Source of the DNA: Eubacteriales bacterium
Lineage (GTDB): Bacteria; Bacillota; Clostridia; Oscillospirales; CAG-272
DNA: 40,403 nt
Assembly (NCBI GenBank): GCA_051867855.1
Contig: JBJDZF010000378.1
Span: 1 to 40,403 of the forward strand
Direction: 5' to 3'
A model generated the notes under the pieces. The model saw nothing but the letters and a program-made list of their open reading frames with translations. It had not been told where the DNA came from and searched no databases. Shown here piece by piece: positions 5,412-39,472 of the stretch (position 1 is its first letter; each line of letters opens with the position of its first letter). Both the position numbers and the translations under genes were made by a program.

Positions 5412-7541
5412 TCACCCCCTTTCGGTGCTTTCATCCTGATTGACCGGATTCTGCGCCGCAGATGCTTTTTCTGCGGCTTCCTTTGCGTCCGCTCTCGCCT
5501 GCTCTATAATGCGCATCTGCATGTCGTTATCGCTTTGTCGCTGTGCGTCCTGTGCCTGCATTTCCGCCTGACGCTGTGCGTTCTGATCCGCCTGCATCTG
5601 CTGCATCTGCGCAAGCATGGCTTGTTTCTGCTGCTCCTCCTGCATGGATTCCAGATACCGCAGTGTATCTGCCGCTCCTGGATAGTGCAGCAGCTCCATT
5701 TTTCGCCAGAACATGATGAGCGTATCAATGCTCGACGGATCGCCGAATGCGCCGGACTGCAGATTCTGCCTTGTTTCCTGCCACATTGCCTCCCGGTTGT
5801 TGGCAAGCGGCGTTGCGGTATCGCACGAGAAAAGAAACTGATCATTCCACCAGAACTCGCCCGTGCTGTCGATCTCTAGGAAGTCCCATTTGTTGAACTC
5901 CGTATAATCGATTTCTCCATTGTCGTTGCGTGTCCTGACCGGGCGAGGCTCATCCGCATATGCAAGCTCAAACTTAAAAAGCATTTCGTAAAGCTTTGCA
6001 AAAGCGGTTTCTTTGTTTTTTCTCTTACTCTCCAACCGTCCGGCAGCCTGTGCCGCGGAAAACTCCTTTGCCTTTCCGCTTGTAGCGGTTTTATCCGTGC
6101 GCCCCTGATAGCTGTCTGTGATACCTATGATCTGTCTGGCCGTTTGATAATAGTGTTCCTCAAGCGACATTTCCTGCGATACGTCAAATGTAAAATCCAC
6201 GGACTTGAACATGTTGATCTTATCAGGGGTATCAATAACATACCGTTTCCCGTCGCGCGAATCCATCTTGAGCATACAGTCGGCAGGTACCACGGTATAG
6301 CTTCCGCCCGTAACGGCTTTTTCGATGATCTTCGCTTCCAGTCGGTTGATCGCGTTCTGCTGCGTTCGGATGTTGGTGATATCCGATTCGCCGATCAGTC
6401 GCCCGTAACGGCTTGTATTGCGCTGTACCTCAATCGGATAGATATCCGGTTTGTAATACGGCACGTTTATCGGCTTGATCGATACTGTGTAAATCGGATT
6501 CCCATCCGCCTCATATCCGTTTTCGGTTATCCCCTGCACGGGCTGCGCTATGATGCTGCCGTCCGATCTGCGGATCGGCTCCGTGAGTTCCATGTAGTCG
6601 TCTGATGTTTCTTCCCACGCATCCGCGCCGCAGTACGGGCACACATGCTTTTTCGGTCTTTCTGGCATTTCCTGCGCATCCGCGGTTTCTTCGTCCGGCT
6701 CCGGCCTTGTCCCGTCCTGTGTCTGCTGTCCGATCGGCTGTGTGCCGTCCTCCGGTGCGCCGCACTTTCTGCATCGCCGCATTCGCCGCGCCTGATAGTC
6801 GTCGTAGTCGGCAAGCTGTGTGTCGCAGGTCCAGACATACAGACCGATACCGCCGTTGTCGTTTCGATAGTAACCGTAATATACAGTAAGCATATCTTCA
6901 GCCTGCGTCGCATCGCCCTGACCGTCACGGAGTTCCGGTTCTTCTTCTTCTCCATCCACAAAAACGTGATACCGACGTTCCACTCTGGATTTAGTCATCG
7001 GTATTTTGATAATGCACCAGTCCATGTCGTTTGGTGATGTGCAGATTCCGGGCTGCGGGACAATCTGTTTCGGGTGAAGGATTGATACATCGGTTTCTCC
7101 CGTCGTTTCGTGAGTGTTCTGCTCGTTGTCCCACTCACACAGCCAAACGGCGCCGCCGTAGGTCGGTACCATGCGTTCCGCAGTATCGTTCATAAGCTCC
7201 ATATCAAGCGCGTCTACCTTATCACGCAGCATATCTTCAATGATATTTGCGAGATATTCGTCTTGCTTTCGTTTGGCTGTGACTTTCGGCATCGGGATTG
7301 CTGTTGATATCTGGCTTTCGATGATTTCACGGACAATGTTTCTCACAATCGGTGTTTTTTTTGTCTTGTCGTCGTCAATAACCGGATCGACAGTATCATA
7401 TCTTCCGGAATACAGGCGATCAAGCTCCTCAAAACTATCATGCTGTGTATCATATGCGGTCTGACCGGTTGCAAGCCGTTCTTTCCACATTTCCATCTTT
7501 GCGCGATCAATTTTTGTTTTCATGTTTTTGGCGTTCCCCAT
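5412..7541 (-). CDS. Portal protein with an internal Cys4 zinc-ribbon insertion
   Basis: 709 aa directly after terL. Q-rich coiled C-terminus (EEQQKQAMLAQMQQMQADQNAQRQAEMQ). CRKC...(40 aa)...CPYC at 6630-6773. An alternative start at ATG 7523 makes an ATGA overlap with the terL stop. Confidence 0.7.
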   Translation of the reverse strand: MGNAKNMKTKIDRAKMEMWKERLATGQTAYDTQHDSFEELDRLYSGRYDTVDPVIDDDKTKKTPIVRNIVREIIESQISTAIPMPKVTAKRKQDEYLANIIEDMLRDKVDALDMELMNDTAERMVPTYGGAVWLCEWDNEQNTHETTGETDVSILHPKQIVPQPGICTSPNDMDWCIIKIPMTKSRVERRYHVFVDGEEEEPELRDGQGDATQAEDMLTVYYGYYRNDNGGIGLYVWTCDTQLADYDDYQARRMRRCRKCGAPEDGTQPIGQQTQDGTRPEPDEETADAQEMPERPKKHVCPYCGADAWEETSDDYMELTEPIRRSDGSIIAQPVQGITENGYEADGNPIYTVSIKPINVPYYKPDIYPIEVQRNTSRYGRLIGESDITNIRTQQNAINRLEAKIIEKAVTGGSYTVVPADCMLKMDSRDGKRYVIDTPDKINMFKSVDFTFDVSQEMSLEEHYYQTARQIIGITDSYQGRTDKTATSGKAKEFSAAQAAGRLESKRKNKETAFAKLYEMLFKFELAYADEPRPVRTRNDNGEIDYTEFNKWDFLEIDSTGEFWWNDQFLFSCDTATPLANNREAMWQETRQNLQSGAFGDPSSIDTLIMFWRKMELLHYPGAADTLRYLESMQEEQQKQAMLAQMQQMQADQNAQRQAEMQAQDAQRQSDNDMQMRIIEQARADAKEAAEKASAAQNPVNQDESTERG

Positions 7542-9046
7542 TTTTCTTTTAAGTATCGTTTAGTATCGCTATTCGCCGCGTTGTAATCGTCCCACATATC
7601 ATCCGTCCATGCCGTTTTCGCTTTTTCTGGCTCCTTGTACACGGATTTTTGCTGTCCCTCAATTGCAAGCGCAATTGCAAGCGCCATGATGCAGTCGTCA
7701 TGTGCCCCCTCCTGCGCTTCAGGCCGGAATTCTTCGTTGCGTACAAAAGTAAGCATTTCTTCGAGCGTAGTTCTGTCGTTGATCGTATCGTCGTTTGCTT
7801 TAACATGATTGATAAGGCGGGCTATTATTGTGTTGCGTGTGAGCTTATCCGTTAGAAATCCGTACTGGTCGACTGTTTTGTGTGTATATCGATCAATCGA
7901 CTGCCGCACATACAGCTTCGGATATCCGAGCCGCGCAAGCTCGTTTACCGGATATGTGGAAAAATTTATCTCAATGCCGATGAGCGCGGTATTGTAGTAT
8001 TTCCCTAGGCAGTACATCTGATTGCAGTACTCTTTTTCCCCGGTTGTCATCTTGAGGACTGCGCATTGTTCTTTTGTTTTGTTATTAAGCACCTGGCCTA
8101 CAAATCGGTCCGATCCGTTTCCGGCAATGTCTCCGCCAATGACAAATGGTACATTTGCATCCGGCTCTTTGTAAATATAGATAAGCTGGTTTCTCTCATC
8201 CTCAATCCATGTGATATCATAGATACAGTCTGATCCCTCTCGATACGCAAAATATCCGGCTTTTACCGGATTCGGTATCTTTTGGAGCCTCTCGGAAACG
8301 ATAACCGCAGGAAAAACGGTTTTTCCGGTTACGCCCCATTCGCCAAGGCAGTATACCGTGTAGTAATATTCATCGGTTTCCCGGAACGCTTCCAGTGTCT
8401 GGATCGCCTCATCCGGAAGGAATGGATTATCCTTATAATTGCTTCGGCTCGTCGTTGCGCGCCGGTCTTGCTTATCGTAAAAACGCGCTTTAAGCCAATG
8501 TGTTACCGATACCGGATTAAACGTCAAAATGATTTGCTTATAGTACGGTGTTTCATCTCTTAGTCTGATATCGAGCTGGTTAAAATCGTATTCGGTAATT
8601 TCAGATGCTTCCTCTATCCAGATCATTGTGATTCCGCGGATTGATTTCAGTTTTTCGACATTATCAAGGCCGGAAAAAACAATTTCCGAACCGTTTTGTA
8701 AAACGATTCGCATAGGAGATGATGTCATGCGCTTGATTTTATCGGGATAGTATGTTTCTGCCTGCTCTTTGAGCTGGGAAAAGCATGATAAGCTGATGCT
8801 TTTCTCTGTTTTTCGCACGACTAAAACACGGTGTCCTTTTTCTGTCGCGCAGCGCTCAAGCAATTTTCTTCCTGCGAAAACGGATTTACCGGAGCCGCCG
8901 CCGCCCATCAGGACAAGATAACGGGATTGATTAAAAAGCAGATCGCGAAAAACCGGTACATTTGTATCACACCACGATTTCCACCAGGATACAAGCTCTT
9001 TTTCCGTCTCTTTTTTGATTTTTTTCGATTTATAGGCAGTTTTCAT
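7520..9046 (-). CDS. terL: Terminase large subunit (PBSX-like family)
   Basis: 508 aa. Walker A in YLVLMGGGGSGKS, Walker B-like MIWIEEASE, C-terminal nuclease-type acidic motifs. ATGA overlap with terS. Confidence 0.9.
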   Translation of the reverse strand: MKTAYKSKKIKKETEKELVSWWKSWCDTNVPVFRDLLFNQSRYLVLMGGGGSGKSVFAGRKLLERCATEKGHRVLVVRKTEKSISLSCFSQLKEQAETYYPDKIKRMTSSPMRIVLQNGSEIVFSGLDNVEKLKSIRGITMIWIEEASEITEYDFNQLDIRLRDETPYYKQIILTFNPVSVTHWLKARFYDKQDRRATTSRSNYKDNPFLPDEAIQTLEAFRETDEYYYTVYCLGEWGVTGKTVFPAVIVSERLQKIPNPVKAGYFAYREGSDCIYDITWIEDERNQLIYIYKEPDANVPFVIGGDIAGNGSDRFVGQVLNNKTKEQCAVLKMTTGEKEYCNQMYCLGKYYNTALIGIEINFSTYPVNELARLGYPKLYVRQSIDRYTHKTVDQYGFLTDKLTRNTIIARLINHVKANDDTINDRTTLEEMLTFVRNEEFRPEAQEGAHDDCIMALAIALAIEGQQKSVYKEPEKAKTAWTDDMWDDYNAANSDTKRYLKEKWGTPKT

Positions 9047-17451: not shown

Positions 17452-18153
17452 TCATATAATTTCTTTAAGCTTTTTAATCGTGCTTCCACCATAATCGTTT
17501 TCAGTAAGAGCAATAAATTCTTCAACAGTAAAACAGTCTTCCATTTCTATTCCATGATTCTTCATAAAATTATTTCTCCCCATCTCGCAGGATCCGGTGA
17601 GATAGTGATGCCATTCGTAAAATTCAGAACACGGATATTTCCGACCTTTCTTAAATTTTTCGCAGAATCTCTCTATAGCTTCGTCTTCATCCATATTTTC
17701 CATGATCTTTTCGCGAAGCGCTTCTGCCGCTTTTTCGGCGGTTTCTCCATGCGCGAAAAATCCATCACCTTTCGCGACGTAGCAAGGTACAAGTGTAAAA
17801 TCAGATTGCAATATGTACCCTTTTGCGAGATTCCCATGAATGGATCTGATTACAGTTTGAATATGGTCTATGACCAAAACATAATATCCGTTAAAAAACG
17901 ATATTCCGTAGGAGGATCTTGATCCGCCGCCGTAGCCTCCGCCGGATTCGTTTCCGCCGGATTCGTTTCCGACGCCGTAGCCTCCGCCGGATTCGTTTCC
18001 GCCGCCGTAGCCTCCGCCGGATTCGTTTCCGCCGCCGTAGCCTCCGCCGGATTCGTTTCCGCCGCCGTAGCCGTAGCCGGCGCCGTAGCCGTAGCCGGAG
18101 CCGGAGCCGGAGCAATTATCCGCAATCCATTCAAGGATTTTTACTTTTTCCAT
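17452..18153 (-). CDS. Gly/Tyr-rich repeat protein with a globular C-terminal domain
   Basis: 233 aa. N-terminal SGSGSGYGYGAGYGYGGGNESGGGYGGGNES... repeats, then FNGYYVLVIDHIQT...AKGYIL..DFTLVPCYVAKGDGFFAHGET. Confidence 0.7.
   Translation of the reverse strand: MEKVKILEWIADNCSGSGSGYGYGAGYGYGGGNESGGGYGGGNESGGGYGGGNESGGGYGVGNESGGNESGGGYGGGSRSSYGISFFNGYYVLVIDHIQTVIRSIHGNLAKGYILQSDFTLVPCYVAKGDGFFAHGETAEKAAEALREKIMENMDEDEAIERFCEKFKKGRKYPCSEFYEWHHYLTGSCEMGRNNFMKNHGIEMEDCFTVEEFIALTENDYGGSTIKKLKEII
17926..18110. repeat. 30-bp tandem coding repeat (plus degenerate GTAGCC/GGAGCC tail)
   Basis: gccgccgtagcctccgccggattcgtttcc at 17926-17955, a 15-bp half unit, then units at 17971-18000, 18001-18030 and 18031-18060 (the last two identical). 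Confidence 0.9.
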
Positions 18154-21002: not shown

Positions 21003-21031
21003 TTGACACACTGTTTTTTGCGTGCTATAAT
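21003..21031 (+). promoter_or_regulatory. Perfect consensus promoter P2
   Basis: TTGACA (21003-21008), 17 nt, TGcTATAAT (21023-21031). Confidence 0.85.
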
Positions 21032-21049
21032 AAATTATGGGTGATAATT

Positions 21050-21493
21050 ATGAAAACCAAAATTTTTGTTTGCATTTTGATTTTTGTTGGAATTTGTACA
21101 TTTGCTGTTATTGCGCCAAACTATAAAGATGTACAGAATACTGGTGCTGTTGTTTCTGTTGATTCAAAACCGATTGCAATAAATCATGAAACCGAAGAAA
21201 ATCATGATTCCGAATTGCAGTTGGTTTCTATTACAGATCCGATATCTCCCGGAAAAGTTGCTGCTTTGATATTAAAAGGGAAACCGAATACGGATTATTA
21301 CCTTGTTGTGATCTATCAAAAAGAATCAAAGGCAAGTGGTCTCGGATTGGCCACATCAGATAGCACCGGTATGGTTAAATGGTATTGGAAGGTTGGAACA
21401 AGAACATATACAGGTGAAAAAGATATAAAGGTTTACTATGGTAATAGCAAAAAAGGAAAACCAATTTTCGAAATGAAATTCACTGTAAAATGA
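21050..21493 (+). CDS. Secreted or membrane-anchored small protein (147 aa), moron-like
   Basis: The real start is the internal Met at 21050, downstream of P2. The 299-aa track ORF spans the promoter. MKTKIFVCILIFVGICTFAVIAP signal/anchor, beta-rich C-terminal domain. AT-rich. Confidence 0.7.
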   Translation: MKTKIFVCILIFVGICTFAVIAPNYKDVQNTGAVVSVDSKPIAINHETEENHDSELQLVSITDPISPGKVAALILKGKPNTDYYLVVIYQKESKASGLGLATSDSTGMVKWYWKVGTRTYTGEKDIKVYYGNSKKGKPIFEMKFTVK

Positions 21494-21551: not shown

Positions 21552-21580
21552 ATTATATCACATTAATTGTACTATGTCAA
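21552..21580 (-). promoter_or_regulatory. Perfect consensus leftward promoter, back-to-back with the repressor promoter
   Basis: Minus strand reads TTGACA (21575-21580), 17 nt, TGaTATAAT (21552-21560). Confidence 0.8.
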
Positions 21581-21680: not shown

Positions 21681-22076
21681 ATGGGCATCGAAGAAAGGAT
21701 CAAGAAAGTTCGTAAAGATAACGGATTGAATCAAACTGAATTCGGGAAGTCTCTCGGGGTAAGCAGAAATGTCATCAAAACATACGAGCTTTCTCTTGTC
21801 AAGCCGTCTGAAATTTTCATCGATCATCTTTGCGTTGTATACGGTATAAATCCGGAATGGCTCGAAACCGGACAAGGAAGCATGCACGCCGATATATCGC
21901 GCGAAGAACAGATTGCGCGATTCGTAGGAGAAGCGATGAAGGAGGAAGGATCGTTCAAACATGCATTGATAACCCTTTTATCCGAGCTGGATGAAGACGG
22001 ATGGAAGAAGCTGGACGAGGCCGCACATGCTCTGCTCGATGCGCAGGAGCAGATCAGGAAAAGCAGCGATCCTTAA
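21681..22076 (+). CDS. XRE-family (CI-like) repressor, no peptidase domain
   Basis: 131 aa. IKKVRKDNGLNQTEFGKSLGVSRNVIKTYE...GINPEWLETGQG is a canonical HTH_3 with the WL.TG tail. AAGGAGG SD. Confidence 0.85.
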   Translation: MGIEERIKKVRKDNGLNQTEFGKSLGVSRNVIKTYELSLVKPSEIFIDHLCVVYGINPEWLETGQGSMHADISREEQIARFVGEAMKEEGSFKHALITLLSELDEDGWKKLDEAAHALLDAQEQIRKSSDP

Positions 22077-22089
22077 TTCTTCCGAAGGC

Positions 22090-22134
22090 AAAAAAAAAGA
22101 AACGATGGAATAAAAACCATCGTTTCTTTTTTTG
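22090..22134. terminator. Strong bidirectional terminator
   Basis: 12-bp perfect stem AAGAAACGATGG/CCATCGTTTCTT (22097-22108 / 22117-22128), with an A-run before and a T-run after. Confidence 0.8.
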
Positions 22135-22142
22135 TCATTTCT

Positions 22143-22274
22143 CTATTGCCATGCTTTCAGAATCGTATGAATCCGAACAATCTCTGTATAGCTTGATCTT
22201 CGGATCATGTCCATGATTTCAATCAGCATCTGCAATCGTTTCATTTCTTCCCCCTCATTCTTTTTTCCGCCCAT
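22143..22274 (-). CDS. 43-aa peptide with its own perfect promoter (below the track cutoff)
   Basis: AGGAGGA SD 7 nt before ATG 22274. Own translation MGGKKNEGEEMKRLQMLIEIMDMIRRSSYTEIVRIHTILKAWQ, stop TAG 22143-22145. Confidence 0.6.
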   Translation of the reverse strand: MGGKKNEGEEMKRLQMLIEIMDMIRRSSYTEIVRIHTILKAWQ

Positions 22275-22319: not shown

Positions 22320-22348
22320 ATTATACCATAGGAAAACGGTTTTGTCAA
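22320..22348 (-). promoter_or_regulatory. Perfect consensus promoter P4
   Basis: Minus strand reads TTGACA (22343-22348), 17 nt, TGgTATAAT (22320-22328). The -35 overlaps the stop of the upstream ORF. Confidence 0.85.
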
Positions 22349-22809
22349 CGCATATTTTGCTTTAAGTTTCTGATTCTGTTTTCAAGCTCCTGATTTTCTT
22401 CTTCAAGTACAGCGATTTCGATTTCTTTTTCTTTGCATCTTTTCTTCAGTTCGAATATGTATGTACTGACGATTTTTGCGTTTTCAATGCCGCTGCTTTG
22501 GATTTCAAGGTCGATGCTGCAGTGATCTTCCTGAAGCTTCTTGATTTCGTTTTCCTTCATGATTTCCCTGACACGGTCATGTACGGAATTTATCGTCCGA
22601 TTCATTTCTATTCCGTGTCTTTCGATCATGGATTTCTTTTCCTTTTCGTGCTCTTTTGCTTCTCTGATTTTCTCAAAATATAAATCTTCGTTTTCCTTTT
22701 TCAGTTTCAGCACCTCTTCTCTTTTATCGAAATAAAGCACGAAGAAAACGACAGCTGTTATAATGAGTATAATGATTACCGAATACATGAATCCAACCAA
22801 CTCTGACAT
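22345..22809 (-). CDS. N-terminally anchored coiled-coil membrane protein (154 aa)
   Basis: Start at ATG 22809 (AAAGGAG SD). TM helix FMYSVIIILIITAVVFFVLYF, then a Lys/Glu-rich heptad-like sequence. Very AT-rich. Confidence 0.7.
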   Translation of the reverse strand: MSELVGFMYSVIIILIITAVVFFVLYFDKREEVLKLKKENEDLYFEKIREAKEHEKEKKSMIERHGIEMNRTINSVHDRVREIMKENEIKKLQEDHCSIDLEIQSSGIENAKIVSTYIFELKKRCKEKEIEIAVLEEENQELENRIRNLKQNMR

Positions 22810-22830
22810 GATATCACTCCTTTCACTACT

Positions 22831-22859
22831 ATTATACATCATTTTTTATTGTTTTTCAA
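22831..22859 (-). promoter_or_regulatory. Near-consensus promoter
   Basis: Minus strand reads TTGAAA (22854-22859), 17 nt, TATAAT (22831-22836). Confidence 0.7.
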
Positions 22860-22867
22860 TTATTCTG

Positions 22868-22896
22868 TTGATTTTTGTTCCGGATTATGATATAAT
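22868..22896 (+). promoter_or_regulatory. Near-consensus promoter, back-to-back with 22831-22859
   Basis: TTGATT (22868-22873), 17 nt, TGaTATAAT (22888-22896). Confidence 0.75.
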
Positions 22897-22920
22897 TCAA
22901 TATAAAAGAGGTGTATTGAA

Positions 22921-23430
22921 ATGATTGAAGAAATGGATTTTTCCGATTTTGTTATTACGATCTGTTATGCTTGTCAGGTAGCCTCATTGATCTGTATCTA
23001 TAGATACTACGATTACAGAGAAATCAATGAATATTATCATATGAAAGCAAGAAATAAGGTAACGCACAGCTTCTTGAAAAACCTTTTTGCGATTTATTTC
23101 ATCCAACACCTGATAGGATTTATATTATATTTCATTGCTTATTGGTATATTTTCACCGATTTCATTATCATGATACCGCTTGGCTTAATGTGCTTTACAA
23201 TTTCCGTATTGCTTCGCTTGATGAACAAAAAAAAGAATTTCGGTTTTGGATTATCTCTCATTTTATTTTTTATCTTATTTTTGCCTATGTCATATCTCTC
23301 GCTTCGGTATTGCGATAAGTTCACGGATTATTGTACAGAATCCTTTTATTCATGTTTTTGTTTATATATTTTACCAATGTATGGGGTTTTATTTATCGAT
23401 TATAATACATATCTTGATAAAACCGAATAA
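22921..23430 (+). CDS. Polytopic membrane protein (about 5 TM helices, 169 aa)
   Basis: AAGAGGTG SD. Aromatic/Cys-rich hydrophobic segments. Very AT-rich. No recognisable family. Confidence 0.75.
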   Translation: MIEEMDFSDFVITICYACQVASLICIYRYYDYREINEYYHMKARNKVTHSFLKNLFAIYFIQHLIGFILYFIAYWYIFTDFIIMIPLGLMCFTISVLLRLMNKKKNFGFGLSLILFFILFLPMSYLSLRYCDKFTDYCTESFYSCFCLYILPMYGVLFIDYNTYLDKTE

Positions 23431-23612
23431 ACCCTTATTATAATTCATTTATATATTATCATATTTCCAGGAATTTTTCAATAACCAATTAAGACGGAAA
23501 CGGAACCGCTTATTATTTTTCCGATACCATCCGTTCCGAAAAGTCGGAAACGGTCGAAGTCTGTAAGACGATTTCCTGTTTCCGTGTCTTATTTCTATAC
23601 AGTATTTATAAT

Positions 23613-23645
23613 GAAAAAGAGACAGTTTCCGGTCTCTTTTTTTAT
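23613..23645. terminator. Bidirectional terminator
   Basis: AAAGAGAC-agtttccg-GTCTCTTT (23616-23623 / 23632-23639) with A5 before and T-run after. Confidence 0.7.
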
Positions 23646-24310
23646 TTTCCGAAGATCCACATCTTCCGTTTCTTTTTTTCCGGCTCCTTGGTTTCCGCGG
23701 CTTCTATCCGCATGATATCGTTTGCGTGTAAGGCCTGTGCGCCCTTCGTGCTGTCCATTGCATCTGACAGCGCCTGCGTCAGGTTTGCATTCTGTGATAG
23801 CAATGATTTGATCTGCTCGTCTTTTTCCTCAATCTGCCGTTTCAGAAACGCGCACGTTCCGCGAAGCTCTTCCTCCGAAACCGACAGGATCCGTATTGTT
23901 TCGGTTGCAGCCGAAAGTTTCAGCTTCATCGCTTCGGTTTCACGCTCCATTTCCGCCATGAAACCTGAAATTCCTCGGTTTCCGCTGACAACTTTTTCAC
24001 CTTCGGTTTCACCTGTTTTTTCTTCTTCTGACAACCCGGAAAAAGTTTCCCCCGTTCCGGTTTCAGAATTGGCCCCGTCATATCCGGTTTTTTCGGTTTC
24101 ATCTATGGTTTCAGTGGAAACCGGTTTCACCTCTTTTTTTCTCTTTTTTTCATCGTTTTCCGAAACCAATATTTTCTCCGCTTCTTCTGTCAGGTAGATG
24201 GTCTTATCCTCCGCCGTGAAAAAGGTTTCACGCGGAAGTTTCAGCACGCGCTTATAAAGCGCCTGTCTGGATATCCCCATTTCACCCGCAAGCTGCCGTA
24301 TCGTTTTCAT
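23642..24310 (-). CDS. HTH protein translationally coupled to rep (plasmid replication-associated, DUF536-like arrangement)
   Basis: 222 aa. MKTIRQLAGEMGISRQALYKRVLKLP HTH, acidic Thr/Glu-rich linker, C-terminal coiled coil. ATGA overlap with rep. Confidence 0.55.
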   Translation of the reverse strand: MKTIRQLAGEMGISRQALYKRVLKLPRETFFTAEDKTIYLTEEAEKILVSENDEKKRKKEVKPVSTETIDETEKTGYDGANSETGTGETFSGLSEEEKTGETEGEKVVSGNRGISGFMAEMERETEAMKLKLSAATETIRILSVSEEELRGTCAFLKRQIEEKDEQIKSLLSQNANLTQALSDAMDSTKGAQALHANDIMRIEAAETKEPEKKKRKMWIFGK

Positions 24311-25368
24311 CTTTTCCCGCCTCCGCTCCCGTCAGATGCAAGCATCTTGCAGAAATACCTGTACCGGCTTGTATGTACATCCCTCGTCTGCATCTCATCG
24401 TATTTCCGCTTGAGATAATGATATCGGCATATGTCCGGATCGTCAAACCGTGTTCCGACCGTATCGTCAGGAACTGCTTTCACAAGGTCATAGAGATACC
24501 GCATTTCGCTTTCATCAAACTCTCTGTCGCAGGCGTCCGCTAAAAACTCAAGCGTTTCGTCCTCGTAGGTATGCGCGACCTCCTCGAATTCCGTGATATC
24601 GACGCATCCGTCCCCGTCCGTTTTCTGCATATCCATATACGCACGCAGAGACAGCGGATCGGAAAATGCATCGTTTTTCATGATCCGGAATACGACCGCC
24701 GTGACGCGTCCTCCGCGCCCGTGCTTTTCAAGCGTATAGGTATACCTGATATCCGTGTTTTCCGCAAGCGCCGTCTGGCATGCGTCCAATACGCACGCTT
24801 TGAACCGGTCGAATCGGTCATAGGTTCCCGGCTCGATTCCGAGCAGAGACCGTATTTCCGGCAGCGTGAAGCGCCGCTCACCAAGTTTTTCATACTGCTT
24901 CAGAATTTCATACATGCGCAGCTGGTTTTTCGATTCAAGCCGGAGTGCGTTCCACAGCTCGTAGCGGAAATATTCTCGTTTGAACCGGAACAGAAGCGGC
25001 ATAGCGTCCTCATGCGCGCGGAATGTGATATACCAGCCGTCCGGCCGATGCTCGCACCGGCAGCGGTCGAACAGATGGAACTGCTCATACCCGCCGTCGC
25101 TTGTATCAACCGTTATAAGGCGTGAGACAAGCCTTGCGGTTGTTTCCTTAAGCTGTGCTAAATTGATCTTTTTCAGCTCCATAATGCGCTGAAAATCGGC
25201 AAGCGCGAATTCCTGCGACCGCGTTTCCTCATCCATGATATTGATTTTTGACAGGTAAATCGAGAAGAAGCGAAGCTCCTGCAGCGTCATCTTCGTTTCT
25301 CTGACTTCGTTCAGCACATTTCGCTTGGTCACAATCGCGTGTTCGCGTATTGTTTTCATAAAGCCCAT
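24307..25368 (-). CDS. rep: Rep_3-family (RepB-type) iteron-binding theta replication initiator
   Basis: IVTKRNVLNEVRETKMTLQELRFFSIYLSKI, YELWNALRLESKNQLRMYEILKQY, FTLPEIRSLLGI..YDRFDRFKACVLDACQTALAENTDIRYTY and GRGGRVTAVVFRI follow the Rep_3 pattern. Start is ATG 25368 or 25359, because the track start 25395 lies inside the promoter. Confidence 0.8.
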   Translation of the reverse strand: MGFMKTIREHAIVTKRNVLNEVRETKMTLQELRFFSIYLSKINIMDEETRSQEFALADFQRIMELKKINLAQLKETTARLVSRLITVDTSDGGYEQFHLFDRCRCEHRPDGWYITFRAHEDAMPLLFRFKREYFRYELWNALRLESKNQLRMYEILKQYEKLGERRFTLPEIRSLLGIEPGTYDRFDRFKACVLDACQTALAENTDIRYTYTLEKHGRGGRVTAVVFRIMKNDAFSDPLSLRAYMDMQKTDGDGCVDITEFEEVAHTYEDETLEFLADACDREFDESEMRYLYDLVKAVPDDTVGTRFDDPDICRYHYLKRKYDEMQTRDVHTSRYRYFCKMLASDGSGGGKR

Positions 25369-25383
25369 CACCTCACCTCTCTG

Positions 25384-25412
25384 ATTATACCACATTTCAA
25401 CACCTTTGTCAA
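25384..25412 (-). promoter_or_regulatory. Perfect consensus rep promoter
   Basis: Minus strand reads TTGACA (25407-25412), 17 nt, TGgTATAAT (25384-25392). Lies between the iterons and rep. Confidence 0.85.
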
Positions 25413-38160: not shown

Positions 38161-38988
38161 TCACATACCGGAAATATGCTGCATAATGCGTTTGAGCACA
38201 ACACAGAACTGTTCTCTTGTGATAGGGTCTTTCGGCATCAGGTTCCCGTTTTCGTCGCCCTTGATGAATCCCATTTTCACAGCCCAGTCCATCGCGTCCT
38301 TTGCCCATTCTGAAACAATTTCGTTCTTTTCCATGTCTGTCTTCTCCTCTTCATTCTTTTGTTCTACAGCTTCCGCCTGTTCGGTTTTTTCCTGGATTTC
38401 ATAGTTTGCGTCTACATATCCGCCGATCCCGTCGACGGCTTCCGATCCCCATTGCCAGATACGGATATTCGGATAATCCGTTTTGGACGGAACATACTTT
38501 TTATCCCTCCACAACGCAAGCCACAGCGGCCACACGCTGATATCCCCGATCCTGTTCTTCAGAAAGTCTGGATTGGTATACACCATCGGTGTATATCCGG
38601 CGCTCTGCACGCGTTTGCAGAACGCGTTGATAATCATAGTAAGCATGCTTTTATCATCGGGAAGATATTTCGATTCCACGTCCACGGCTGCGTACAGGCT
38701 CACAGCGCTCTTGTAAGGAGTTATGGCTGATAGATAATAGTCCGCTTCTTCAATCGCTTCTGTGACCGTCTGTGCGGTCAGAAAATGGTATACGCCTATA
38801 CGGATTCCGCTTTTCTGCGCGCCGATCATATTCCTGATAAAAAAGCTGTCCGTGAACAGGCGCAGAGATGCATTCTGTTCGCTCCGTCCCTGTGTTGCCT
38901 TGATCATGGCAAAATCTACACCGGATGCCCGTACCTTTTCCCAATTGATGCCTGATTGGAACACCGATACGTCAATGCCGCGTTTCAT
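38161..38988 (-). CDS. Endolysin: GH25 muramidase with a C-terminal single SLH-like domain
   Basis: Real start is ATG 38988 (ATGA overlap with the holin stop). [33 protein letters not shown] is the GH25 signature. C-terminal [43 protein letters not shown] fits the SLH consensus. Confidence 0.9.
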
Positions 38989-39191
38989 TTGTCGTTCACC
39001 TCCGGCAGTCCTGCGACGGATGTCAGGATTGACAGAATCCCGGCAAGCACCGATGCGGAAGCGACCGCGATCCAGTTTACTTCGCCGAGCACGGCGGATG
39101 TTCCGATTGTTGCAATAGCCGTCTGCGCGACTGTTTTCAGCGCGCGGATTGCTGCAGCATAAAGCCATTCTTTTGTAAATACGTTTTTCAT
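38985..39191 (-). CDS. Holin (68 aa, two hydrophobic helices)
   Basis: Start at ATG 39191 (GGGAGG SD 7 nt upstream, ATGA overlap). [16 protein letters not shown]...[27 protein letters not shown], immediately upstream of the lysin. Confidence 0.65.
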
Positions 39192-39472
39192 GATAAGACC
39201 TCCCATGTGATAACCGTTTTTCTGATATCGTCGATAAAAGAGTTTCCGCCGAGCGCCTTGTAGGCCTTGTAATTAAGCTCGAAGTTCTGAAGCTCATACT
39301 GGCGGATGCTCTTTGTTTCTTTGTTTGTGTAGTAGGTATGCAGCATGTTCGTGCGCAAAAGGCACCGGAACGCCTCGATGATACAGTGTACCTTGTACAC
39401 GATTCCGATAATGAGCGTAACCCCTGCCGAAATTGCCGTTACATACCCGGCGATTGTTGCTATGTGATTCAT
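39188..39472 (-). CDS. N-terminally anchored lysis-cassette protein (94 aa)
   Basis: Start at ATG 39472 (AAAGAGGA SD). TM helix [20 protein letters not shown], then [12 protein letters not shown]...[19 protein letters not shown]. Confidence 0.6.

Follow-up and report, generated by a model that had tools for sequence, protein, structure and literature searches.

The window analysed here, contig JBJDZF010000378.1 (40,403 nucleotides, nt) of GenBank assembly GCA_051867855.1 from a Eubacteriales bacterium, is one whole contig and the longest among the 445 contigs of a 2.7-Mb metagenome-assembled genome with 48% guanine plus cytosine (GC). Our subject is a pair of small membrane-protein genes that diverge within it from a 111-bp control region (22810–22920). 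In the open reading frame (ORF) list the leftward gene, here called cc154, occupies positions 22345–22809 on the minus strand and encodes a bitopic membrane protein of 154 amino acids (aa), and the rightward gene, tm169, occupies positions 22921–23430 on the plus strand and encodes a polytopic membrane protein of 169 aa. An earlier inspection of the letters, hereafter the sequence-only reading, had described an N-anchored protein of 154 aa and a protein of 169 aa with about five transmembrane (TM) helices diverging from 111 bp, and coordinates, sizes and hydropathy agree with that description. The pair lies between a CI-like repressor gene (21681–22076) and a Rep3 replicon (24307–25395), is served by host-type promoters and is bounded by terminators, which bears out the location that the same reading had proposed. 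The cc154 start codon (ATG at 22809) stands 7 nt past the strong Shine–Dalgarno (SD) sequence AAAGGAG (22817–22823), and an alternative ORF call of 165 aa would start at an ATG within the −10 region of the promoter; tm169 is preceded by the likewise strong SD sequence AAGAGGTG at 22906–22913. The ratios of nonsynonymous to synonymous divergence (dN/dS) against sister phages, 0.25 for cc154 and 0.16 for tm169, indicate that both are real genes under purifying selection.

The most informative new result is that the 111-bp spacer constitutes the best-conserved DNA of the region despite the variable DNA-binding domain of the neighbouring repressor. On the minus strand the cc154 promoter (22831–22859) is composed of TTGAAA (22859–22854), a 17-nt spacer and TATAAT (22836–22831), matching the sigma-A consensus at 11 of 12 positions, and on the plus strand the tm169 promoter (22868–22896) is composed of TTGATT (22868–22873), again 17 nt, and the extended −10 element TGaTATAAT (TATAAT at 22891–22896), matching at 10 of 12. 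The −35 boxes are 8 bp apart and both −10 boxes are perfect, just as had been noticed earlier. When the 111-bp spacer was shuffled with its composition kept, a site of at least 10/12 appeared on both strands in 0.4% of 20,000 trials. In four sister phages both hexamers of the cc154 promoter are identical, with one substitution in its spacer, and so are both hexamers and the TG of the tm169 promoter; the promoter spacers and the 8 bp that separate the −35 boxes are likewise conserved. Identity to the sisters amounts to 92.8% in the 111-bp spacer, compared with 83–84% in cc154, 79–80% in tm169, 80–81% in the promoter region of the neighbouring gene orf43, 73–76% in the spacer between tm169 and the gene p222, about 60% in the switch region and 45–51% in the DNA of the repressor N-terminal domain, the control region being thus the most conserved DNA in the 4-kb neighbourhood (P ≤ 1.7e-4 against a background divergence of 20%). 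Divergence sets in again at both start codons, which argues that the conservation of the spacer reflects constraint and not a recombination tract.

The neighbouring immunity genes vary to a much greater extent. At least three unrelated N-terminal helix-turn-helix (HTH) domains are found on one conserved C-terminal domain (residues ∼75–131) of the CI-like repressor when the loci of the window (21681–22076) and of the sister contigs L001 (546–944), L002 (3398–3823) and L025 (1349–2190) are compared. In L025 a recombination breakpoint interrupts orf43 and the immunity genes have a different arrangement, with the repressor gene inverted and a second HTH gene of 138 aa, while the pair is unchanged. 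From the aligned loci this variation is classic immunity-module mosaicism inside a very narrow lineage, and the pair stays intact where the adjacent immunity cassette is swapped or rearranged. Since the spacer is constant across repressor DNA-binding types, it cannot hold their operators, and we infer that both promoters are probably repressor-independent. Neither YGTACT, the candidate operator hexamer of the window's switch, nor a Rep3 iteron or other replicon repeat occurs in the pair spacer, and control of the pair by the repressor or by Rep3 was rejected on these grounds. Both promoters would be active in the plasmid-prophage state, and probably upon infection as well.

Hydropathy assigns to cc154 a single TM helix (residues 8–27) preceded by an N-terminal tail of seven residues that is placed outside. 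There is no positive charge before this helix and there are five within the 12 residues after it, so that the positive-inside rule places the long remainder of the protein in the cytoplasm. AlphaFold models a single continuous helix from residue 2 to 153 (predicted local distance difference test, pLDDT, 90). The term 'coiled coil' used in the sequence-only reading holds for part of this helix, namely the leucine-zipper-like heptads at about residues 118–153, with Asn139 at an 'a' position (assigned by eye, the computed heptad score being coarse); it does not fit the rest, since residues 28–92 are a charged, E/K/R-rich helical stretch of 65 residues (17 acidic, 18 basic) with poor heptad occupancy (3–6 of 8) and residues 93–117 form a conserved non-heptad segment (QEDHxSxDLEIQSSGIENAK). 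Overall, Lys, Glu, Ile and Asn are abundant in cc154, which is net acidic, with 32 acidic against 28 basic residues, and lacks any globular or basic domain. One sister contig (L024, from SRR10828600, 2575–2934) carries a nonsense variant in which codon 120 changes from GAG to TAG (E120), with loss of the zipper; past the stop the reading frame and its conservation continue, and neither tm169 nor anything else is damaged. This variant fits a dispensable accessory gene, though as one assembly it carries small weight. A precomputed, putative family label, PF26566.1, is attached to the cc154 of the window and to none of its 78%-identical sisters.

The tm169 protein has five TM helices by hydropathy. 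In the predicted topology, with the N-terminus outside and the C-terminus inside, 10 of its Lys and Arg residues fall inside and 2 outside. It is rich in Phe, Ile, Tyr and Leu, 23% of its residues are aromatic and its five cysteines are invariant. The conserved core comprises TM2 and TM3 (residues 51–100), where 45 of 50 residues are identical to the sisters (25 of 28 in TM2, 20 of 22 in TM3) and which hold His63, Asp80, Pro86 and Gly88; TM1, TM4 and the loops are 33–75% identical. In cc154, too, the TM helix is nearly invariant (19 of 20 residues), and thus the soluble parts of both proteins have diverged more than their membrane helices. Such a pattern would be expected from specific intramembrane contacts, and a cc154–tm169 complex may be supposed from it. 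The tm169 gene lies on the same strand (+) as the repressor gene, opposite to all lytic genes.

The low GC content that had been estimated by hand was confirmed by computation: 22345–23430 has a GC of 0.322, compared with 0.472 in the whole window and 0.481 in the genome, and only 0.09% of the 1086-bp windows of the genome have a GC this low. Expected values per gene were obtained by applying the codon usage of the core genes of this phage to the amino-acid composition of the gene. For tm169 the GC is 0.302 where 0.390 is expected, and the GC at third codon positions (GC3) is 0.367 versus 0.559 expected (z = −5.3); for cc154 the GC is 0.366 where 0.402 is expected, and GC3 is 0.455 versus 0.528 (z = −1.9). 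Amino-acid composition therefore accounts for about half of the GC drop of tm169 and for most of that of cc154. Of the foreign composition proposed earlier, the part concerning tm169 stands, its codon use being clearly deviant and foreign-looking, while that of cc154 is marginal and mostly a matter of amino-acid composition.

The element that carries the pair encodes a P22-like portal, the large terminase subunit TerL, a gp3-type small terminase, a capsid protein and an endolysin of the GH25 type with an SLH domain. Two arrays of 22-bp iterons lie upstream of the Rep3 initiator gene, and no integrase domain was found among the roughly 20 larger window ORFs that were scanned. Two sister contigs of 40,077 and 39,848 bp end at different points on the same gene circle, so that the window is an essentially complete, circularly assembled genome of about 40 kb. 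What was checked agrees with a phage-plasmid, i.e. an apparently integrase-less phage of about 40 kb with a plasmid-type Rep3 replicon. The close relatives of the pair come from seven contigs of other metagenomes, with 73–79% amino-acid identity to the window and about 97% to one another (by eye, from the alignments). The pair, or as much of it as is covered, is present in all seven contigs that include the site, and wherever a contig extends far enough p222–Rep3 lies next to it; IMG/VR, GTDB genomes and JGI metagenomes yielded no relative whose site is empty. The co-occurrence of the two genes, which the earlier reading had proposed as a check, is thus borne out in every relative found; these relatives, however, all come from a single narrow phage lineage and share the same synteny, so that co-conservation of the pair carries no independent weight. 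As every known relative carries it, the pair is at most a putative accessory module.

The sequence-only reading had recognised no family in either protein, and database searches led to the same outcome. Pfam, PHROGs, PADLOC and NCBIfam returned sub-threshold coiled-coil or TM noise; profile searches of the Protein Data Bank (PDB) with both alignments gave no match, and tblastn with either protein found nothing in GenBank phages or PLSDB plasmids, tm169 having no GenBank phage match at E ≤ 1. An exhaustive phmmer search of tm169 against 1.84e9 representative proteins recovered nothing beyond the sister-phage cluster except a spurious repeat protein (P0011). Profile searches of 300 genomes of the host family yielded chance-level matches, most of them with internal stop codons, scans of IMG/VR, GTDB species genomes and JGI metagenomes with tm169, cc154, p222 and the repressor alignment found nothing, and Foldseek against BFVD and PDB gave nothing meaningful. 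A weak match, of DivIC (PF04977) to cc154 (E = 7.7e-4, 19.7 bits, below the Pfam cut-off of 28.9), covers residues 119–151 only and is due to the zipper stretch; cc154 falls outside DivIC/FtsB both by this gathering threshold and because its helix is predicted to be cytoplasmic and not extracytoplasmic. On this evidence cc154 and tm169 are orphans, without a family in any library searched. A distant phage (L006, IMG/VR UViG_3300000114_000261) whose Rep3 is 44% identical carries right after rep (7065–8345) a gene for a SocA/Panacea-domain antitoxin (E = 1.1e-21) beside a 270-aa protein that by eye has an N-terminal membrane anchor and a helical C-terminus, likely a toxin–antitoxin pair. Homology of cc154 to this 270-aa protein was considered and rejected (hhalign probability 0.2%).

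We tentatively favour, as the foremost of several possibilities and short of an even chance, that the two genes make up a membrane cassette that is active in the plasmid-prophage state and serves exclusion or abortive infection. Host RNA polymerase would transcribe both genes in that state, and their products would act together in the cytoplasmic membrane, tm169 as the intramembrane core and cc154 as a membrane-anchored cytoplasmic stalk that dimerises via its C-terminal zipper. The carrier cell might then be protected from an incoming phage by a blocked DNA-entry conduit in the membrane, as with P22 SieA or HK97 gp15, or alternatively by a Rex-like sensor and a membrane effector that abort the infection. 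A cassette of the resident element is favoured by the repressor-independent host promoters, the terminator insulation, the orientation and codon use of tm169 and the cargo-accepting region in which the pair lies; exclusion or abortive infection was ranked first since exclusion at the cytoplasmic membrane is the best-documented function of such small membrane proteins. Neither protein belonged to any of the families tested, and our claim is accordingly that the pair may work like these systems, not that it is a member of them. A bolder version, rather improbable in our view, would be an undescribed two-component membrane immunity system of gut-Clostridia phage-plasmids, with a five-TM gate or effector and a cytoplasmic stalk of about 19 nm whose zipper end acts as sensor or ruler, both kept at a fixed ratio by a hard-wired, repressor-independent bidirectional promoter, which would exclude or abort superinfecting phages in a manner unlike SieA, Rex and the catalogued systems.

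In organisation the closest analogue is RexA/RexB of phage lambda, an abortive-infection pair in the immunity region that is expressed in the lysogen and whose RexB has 144 aa and four TM helices. Both are two-gene modules beside a repressor gene, with one small polytopic membrane partner and the other on the cytoplasmic side; however, rexAB is co-transcribed with cI, whereas cc154 and tm169 are divergent with promoters of their own, RexA is a soluble protein, unlike the purely helical, membrane-anchored cc154, and no PADLOC match was obtained at E ≤ 0.05. P22 SieA, a prophage-expressed protein of 162–164 aa with three TM helices, blocks the ejection-protein conduit, and its sequence types are less than 30% identical (PMC10883804), so that proteins of this kind diverge quickly. 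Similar in size (169 aa), tm169 is likewise a small polytopic protein of the cytoplasmic membrane without a signal peptide, encoded outside the lytic operons of a phage with a P22-like portal. It differs in lacking any sequence similarity, the SieA motif FxRYPxEAxxFNK being absent from all five tm169 sequences, and in having five TM helices (three to four in SieA) and a divergent partner gene; furthermore, the SLH endolysin points to a Gram-positive-type host without a periplasmic conduit, unlike the setting of P22 SieA. Morons, as defined by Juhala et al. 2000 (summarised in PMC3594210), are often exclusion genes, HK97 gp15 being an example (PMC3594210). The pair resembles them in its own promoters, its deviant GC, its small membrane products and its site outside essential operons. 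As to terminators, tm169 ends at 23613–23642, and cc154, which has none of its own, reads into orf43 as far as 22092–22133. Two near-consensus, conserved sigma-A promoters are predicted that could work in a repressed prophage, and the composition deviates (GC 0.322 versus 0.48), clearly for tm169 and marginally for cc154 after amino-acid correction. The pair departs from morons in that its neutral divergence equals that of the flanks, and in that all seven sister contigs covering the site carry it, where a moron would be extra DNA absent from syntenic relatives.

Several observations weigh against an exclusion or abortive-infection cassette. No homologue from a defence, exclusion or toxin family was found for either protein, the best PADLOC-DB 2.0 match being that of cc154 to PycTM (E = 0.053, 11.9 bits), with none for tm169. 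As modelled, the helix of 125 residues in cc154 would be cytoplasmic and net acidic, unlike known injection blockers, which act in or outside the membrane. The proposed physical interaction between cc154 and tm169 is deduced solely from their adjacency and conserved TM helices, and the AlphaFold model of tm169, five helices with a pLDDT of 44, is too poor for use. Given its presence in every known relative, the pair could belong to the core gene set of the lineage. Moreover, its synonymous divergence (dS, 0.5–0.9) lies in the range of the flanking p222 and Rep3 genes and shows no sign of recent acquisition; the pair was thus present in the common ancestor of the two sub-lineages, and a recent foreign insertion is unsupported.

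Among the other explanations, a role in the maintenance of the plasmid prophage, to which we give a low probability, would account for the position of the pair, which is always linked to the p222–Rep3 side and stays there when the immunity side is exchanged. Either cc154, alone or with tm169, would tether the replicon or p222 to the membrane, p222 being an HTH and coiled-coil protein and a pSK1-Par-like candidate segregation protein, or the pair would be an addiction module of membrane toxin and immunity protein that kills plasmid-free cells. That the divergent promoters are so tightly coupled and so strongly conserved suggests that the product ratio matters, and the slot after rep in the distant phage L006 holds the Panacea-domain antitoxin beside a protein that is membrane-type by eye; yet toxin–antitoxin pairs are usually co-transcribed and not divergent, a truncated cc154 is maintained in an otherwise intact region, and the spacer contains no replicon iteron or repeat. 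For tethering, the model is p16.7 of phage phi29, a membrane anchor of replicating phage DNA that ends in a dimeric DNA-binding domain. With its N-terminal TM helix and long cytoplasmic helical, coiled-coil-containing region, and as the product of a small gene that is early or driven by a host promoter and lies close to replication functions, cc154 resembles it, but it is a single net-acidic helix without a globular or basic DNA-binding domain, and the lack of any PHROG match leaves no detectable relation to p16.7-type proteins. About equally doubtful is a modulation of host physiology unrelated to other phages, as lysogenic conversion or early lytic takeover, in which cc154 would act on a membrane machine at the cytoplasmic face (the divisome, as N-anchored proteins of the EzrA/ZipA type do, or cell-wall synthesis) and tm169 would be a small transporter or channel. 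The outward N-terminus, the long cytoplasmic helix and the C-terminal zipper of cc154 suit such a role, host-type promoters would also fire at once on infection, and the conserved polar His63 and Asp80 in TM2–TM3 of tm169 suit a channel or transporter. The weak DivIC match to the zipper points the same way, though it is below threshold and covers a generic heptad stretch, the topology of DivIC and FtsB is opposite to that of cc154, and tm169 matches no transporter family in any library.

Somewhat less likely still, the two genes could form no functional unit at all and be independent small membrane-protein genes that share an intergenic region, the spacer being conserved merely because its 111 bp have to accommodate two promoters and two ribosome-binding sites. 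All the co-occurrence comes from one lineage with fixed synteny, the unequal codon-usage deviation (z = −5.3 versus −1.9) could indicate separate histories, cc154 is predicted to be co-transcribed with orf43 and not with tm169, and the nonsense variant affects cc154 alone. Nevertheless, conservation of the promoter spacers and of the 8 bp from one −35 box to the other exceeds the needs of hexamers and SD sequences, and the TM helices of both proteins are more conserved than the loops, as for specific intramembrane contacts.

Should the pair be an exclusion or abortive-infection module, it would represent a new protein architecture among prophage-encoded membrane defences, and it would come from the phage-plasmids of uncultured gut Clostridia, about which hardly anything is known. 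Plasmid maintenance would point instead to membrane tethering in a phage-plasmid without a ParA-type ATPase. The hard-wired, highly conserved divergent promoter could also be used as a small bidirectional expression element in Firmicutes. Orphan pairs like cc154 and tm169 are common in the immunity regions of temperate phages, and the surprise is therefore moderate to low.

Regarding the transcription units around the pair, cc154 has no terminator of its own and its transcription from 22859–22831 would run into orf43 as far as a bidirectional terminator at 22092–22133, which is common to the cc154–orf43 unit and the repressor gene. The orf43 gene (22143–22274, minus strand), convergent with the repressor gene, encodes a conserved helical peptide of 43 aa (dN/dS 0.14–0.17) and has a perfect TTGACA/TATAAT promoter (22348–22320, minus strand) that overlaps the cc154 stop codon; in the rearranged contig L025 its first 10 codons are retained and followed by a different but similarly patterned peptide ORF. 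On the other side, a bidirectional terminator at 23613–23642, with an 11-bp stem, a T run on the plus strand and an A run upstream, serves both tm169 (+) and the convergent p222–Rep3 operon (−). The 211-bp spacer between tm169 and p222 contains two direct copies of AAGNCGGAAACGG (23491–23503 and 23541–23553, 50 bp apart), which are possible binding sites for p222.

That the immunity region takes up cargo is demonstrated by a gene at 21050–21493 (plus strand, promoter 21003–21031) for a signal-anchored secreted protein of 147 aa, which has the most deviant codon use of the region (GC3 0.259 versus 0.547 expected, z = −7.5). It is missing from all sisters, where orf55 and the repressor gene are about 180 bp apart, and by this comparison it is a true insertion (moron) within the genetic switch, present in the window phage only. 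The leftward early promoter at 21580–21552 now must read antisense through this gene.

The motif CGGAAACGG occurs in 81 copies with at most one mismatch across the window (15.5 expected), 64 of them on the minus, coding strand. Being enriched genome-wide and strand-biased, its copies were rejected as cassette ends around the AT-rich block. Examples lie at 17948, 17963, 17993, 18023 and 18053 (minus strand), and five copies of CGGAAACGA with a spacing of about 30 bp lie in a 233-aa ORF at 17452–18153. Such a pattern may reflect a peptide repeat or a skewed architecture motif.

A holin or antiholin role for the pair was rejected as well, since the pair matches no holin family and a canonical r1t-family holin gene (38985–39206, minus strand, 73 aa, E = 1.4e-14) lies directly upstream of the GH25 endolysin gene, 15 kb from the pair; with the lysis cassette complete elsewhere, the pair is not needed for lysis and a lysis role is unlikely. 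The listed endolysin ORF of 378 aa (38161–39297, minus strand) overlaps the holin gene, and the real endolysin start is probably an internal Met at about 38988, right after the holin.

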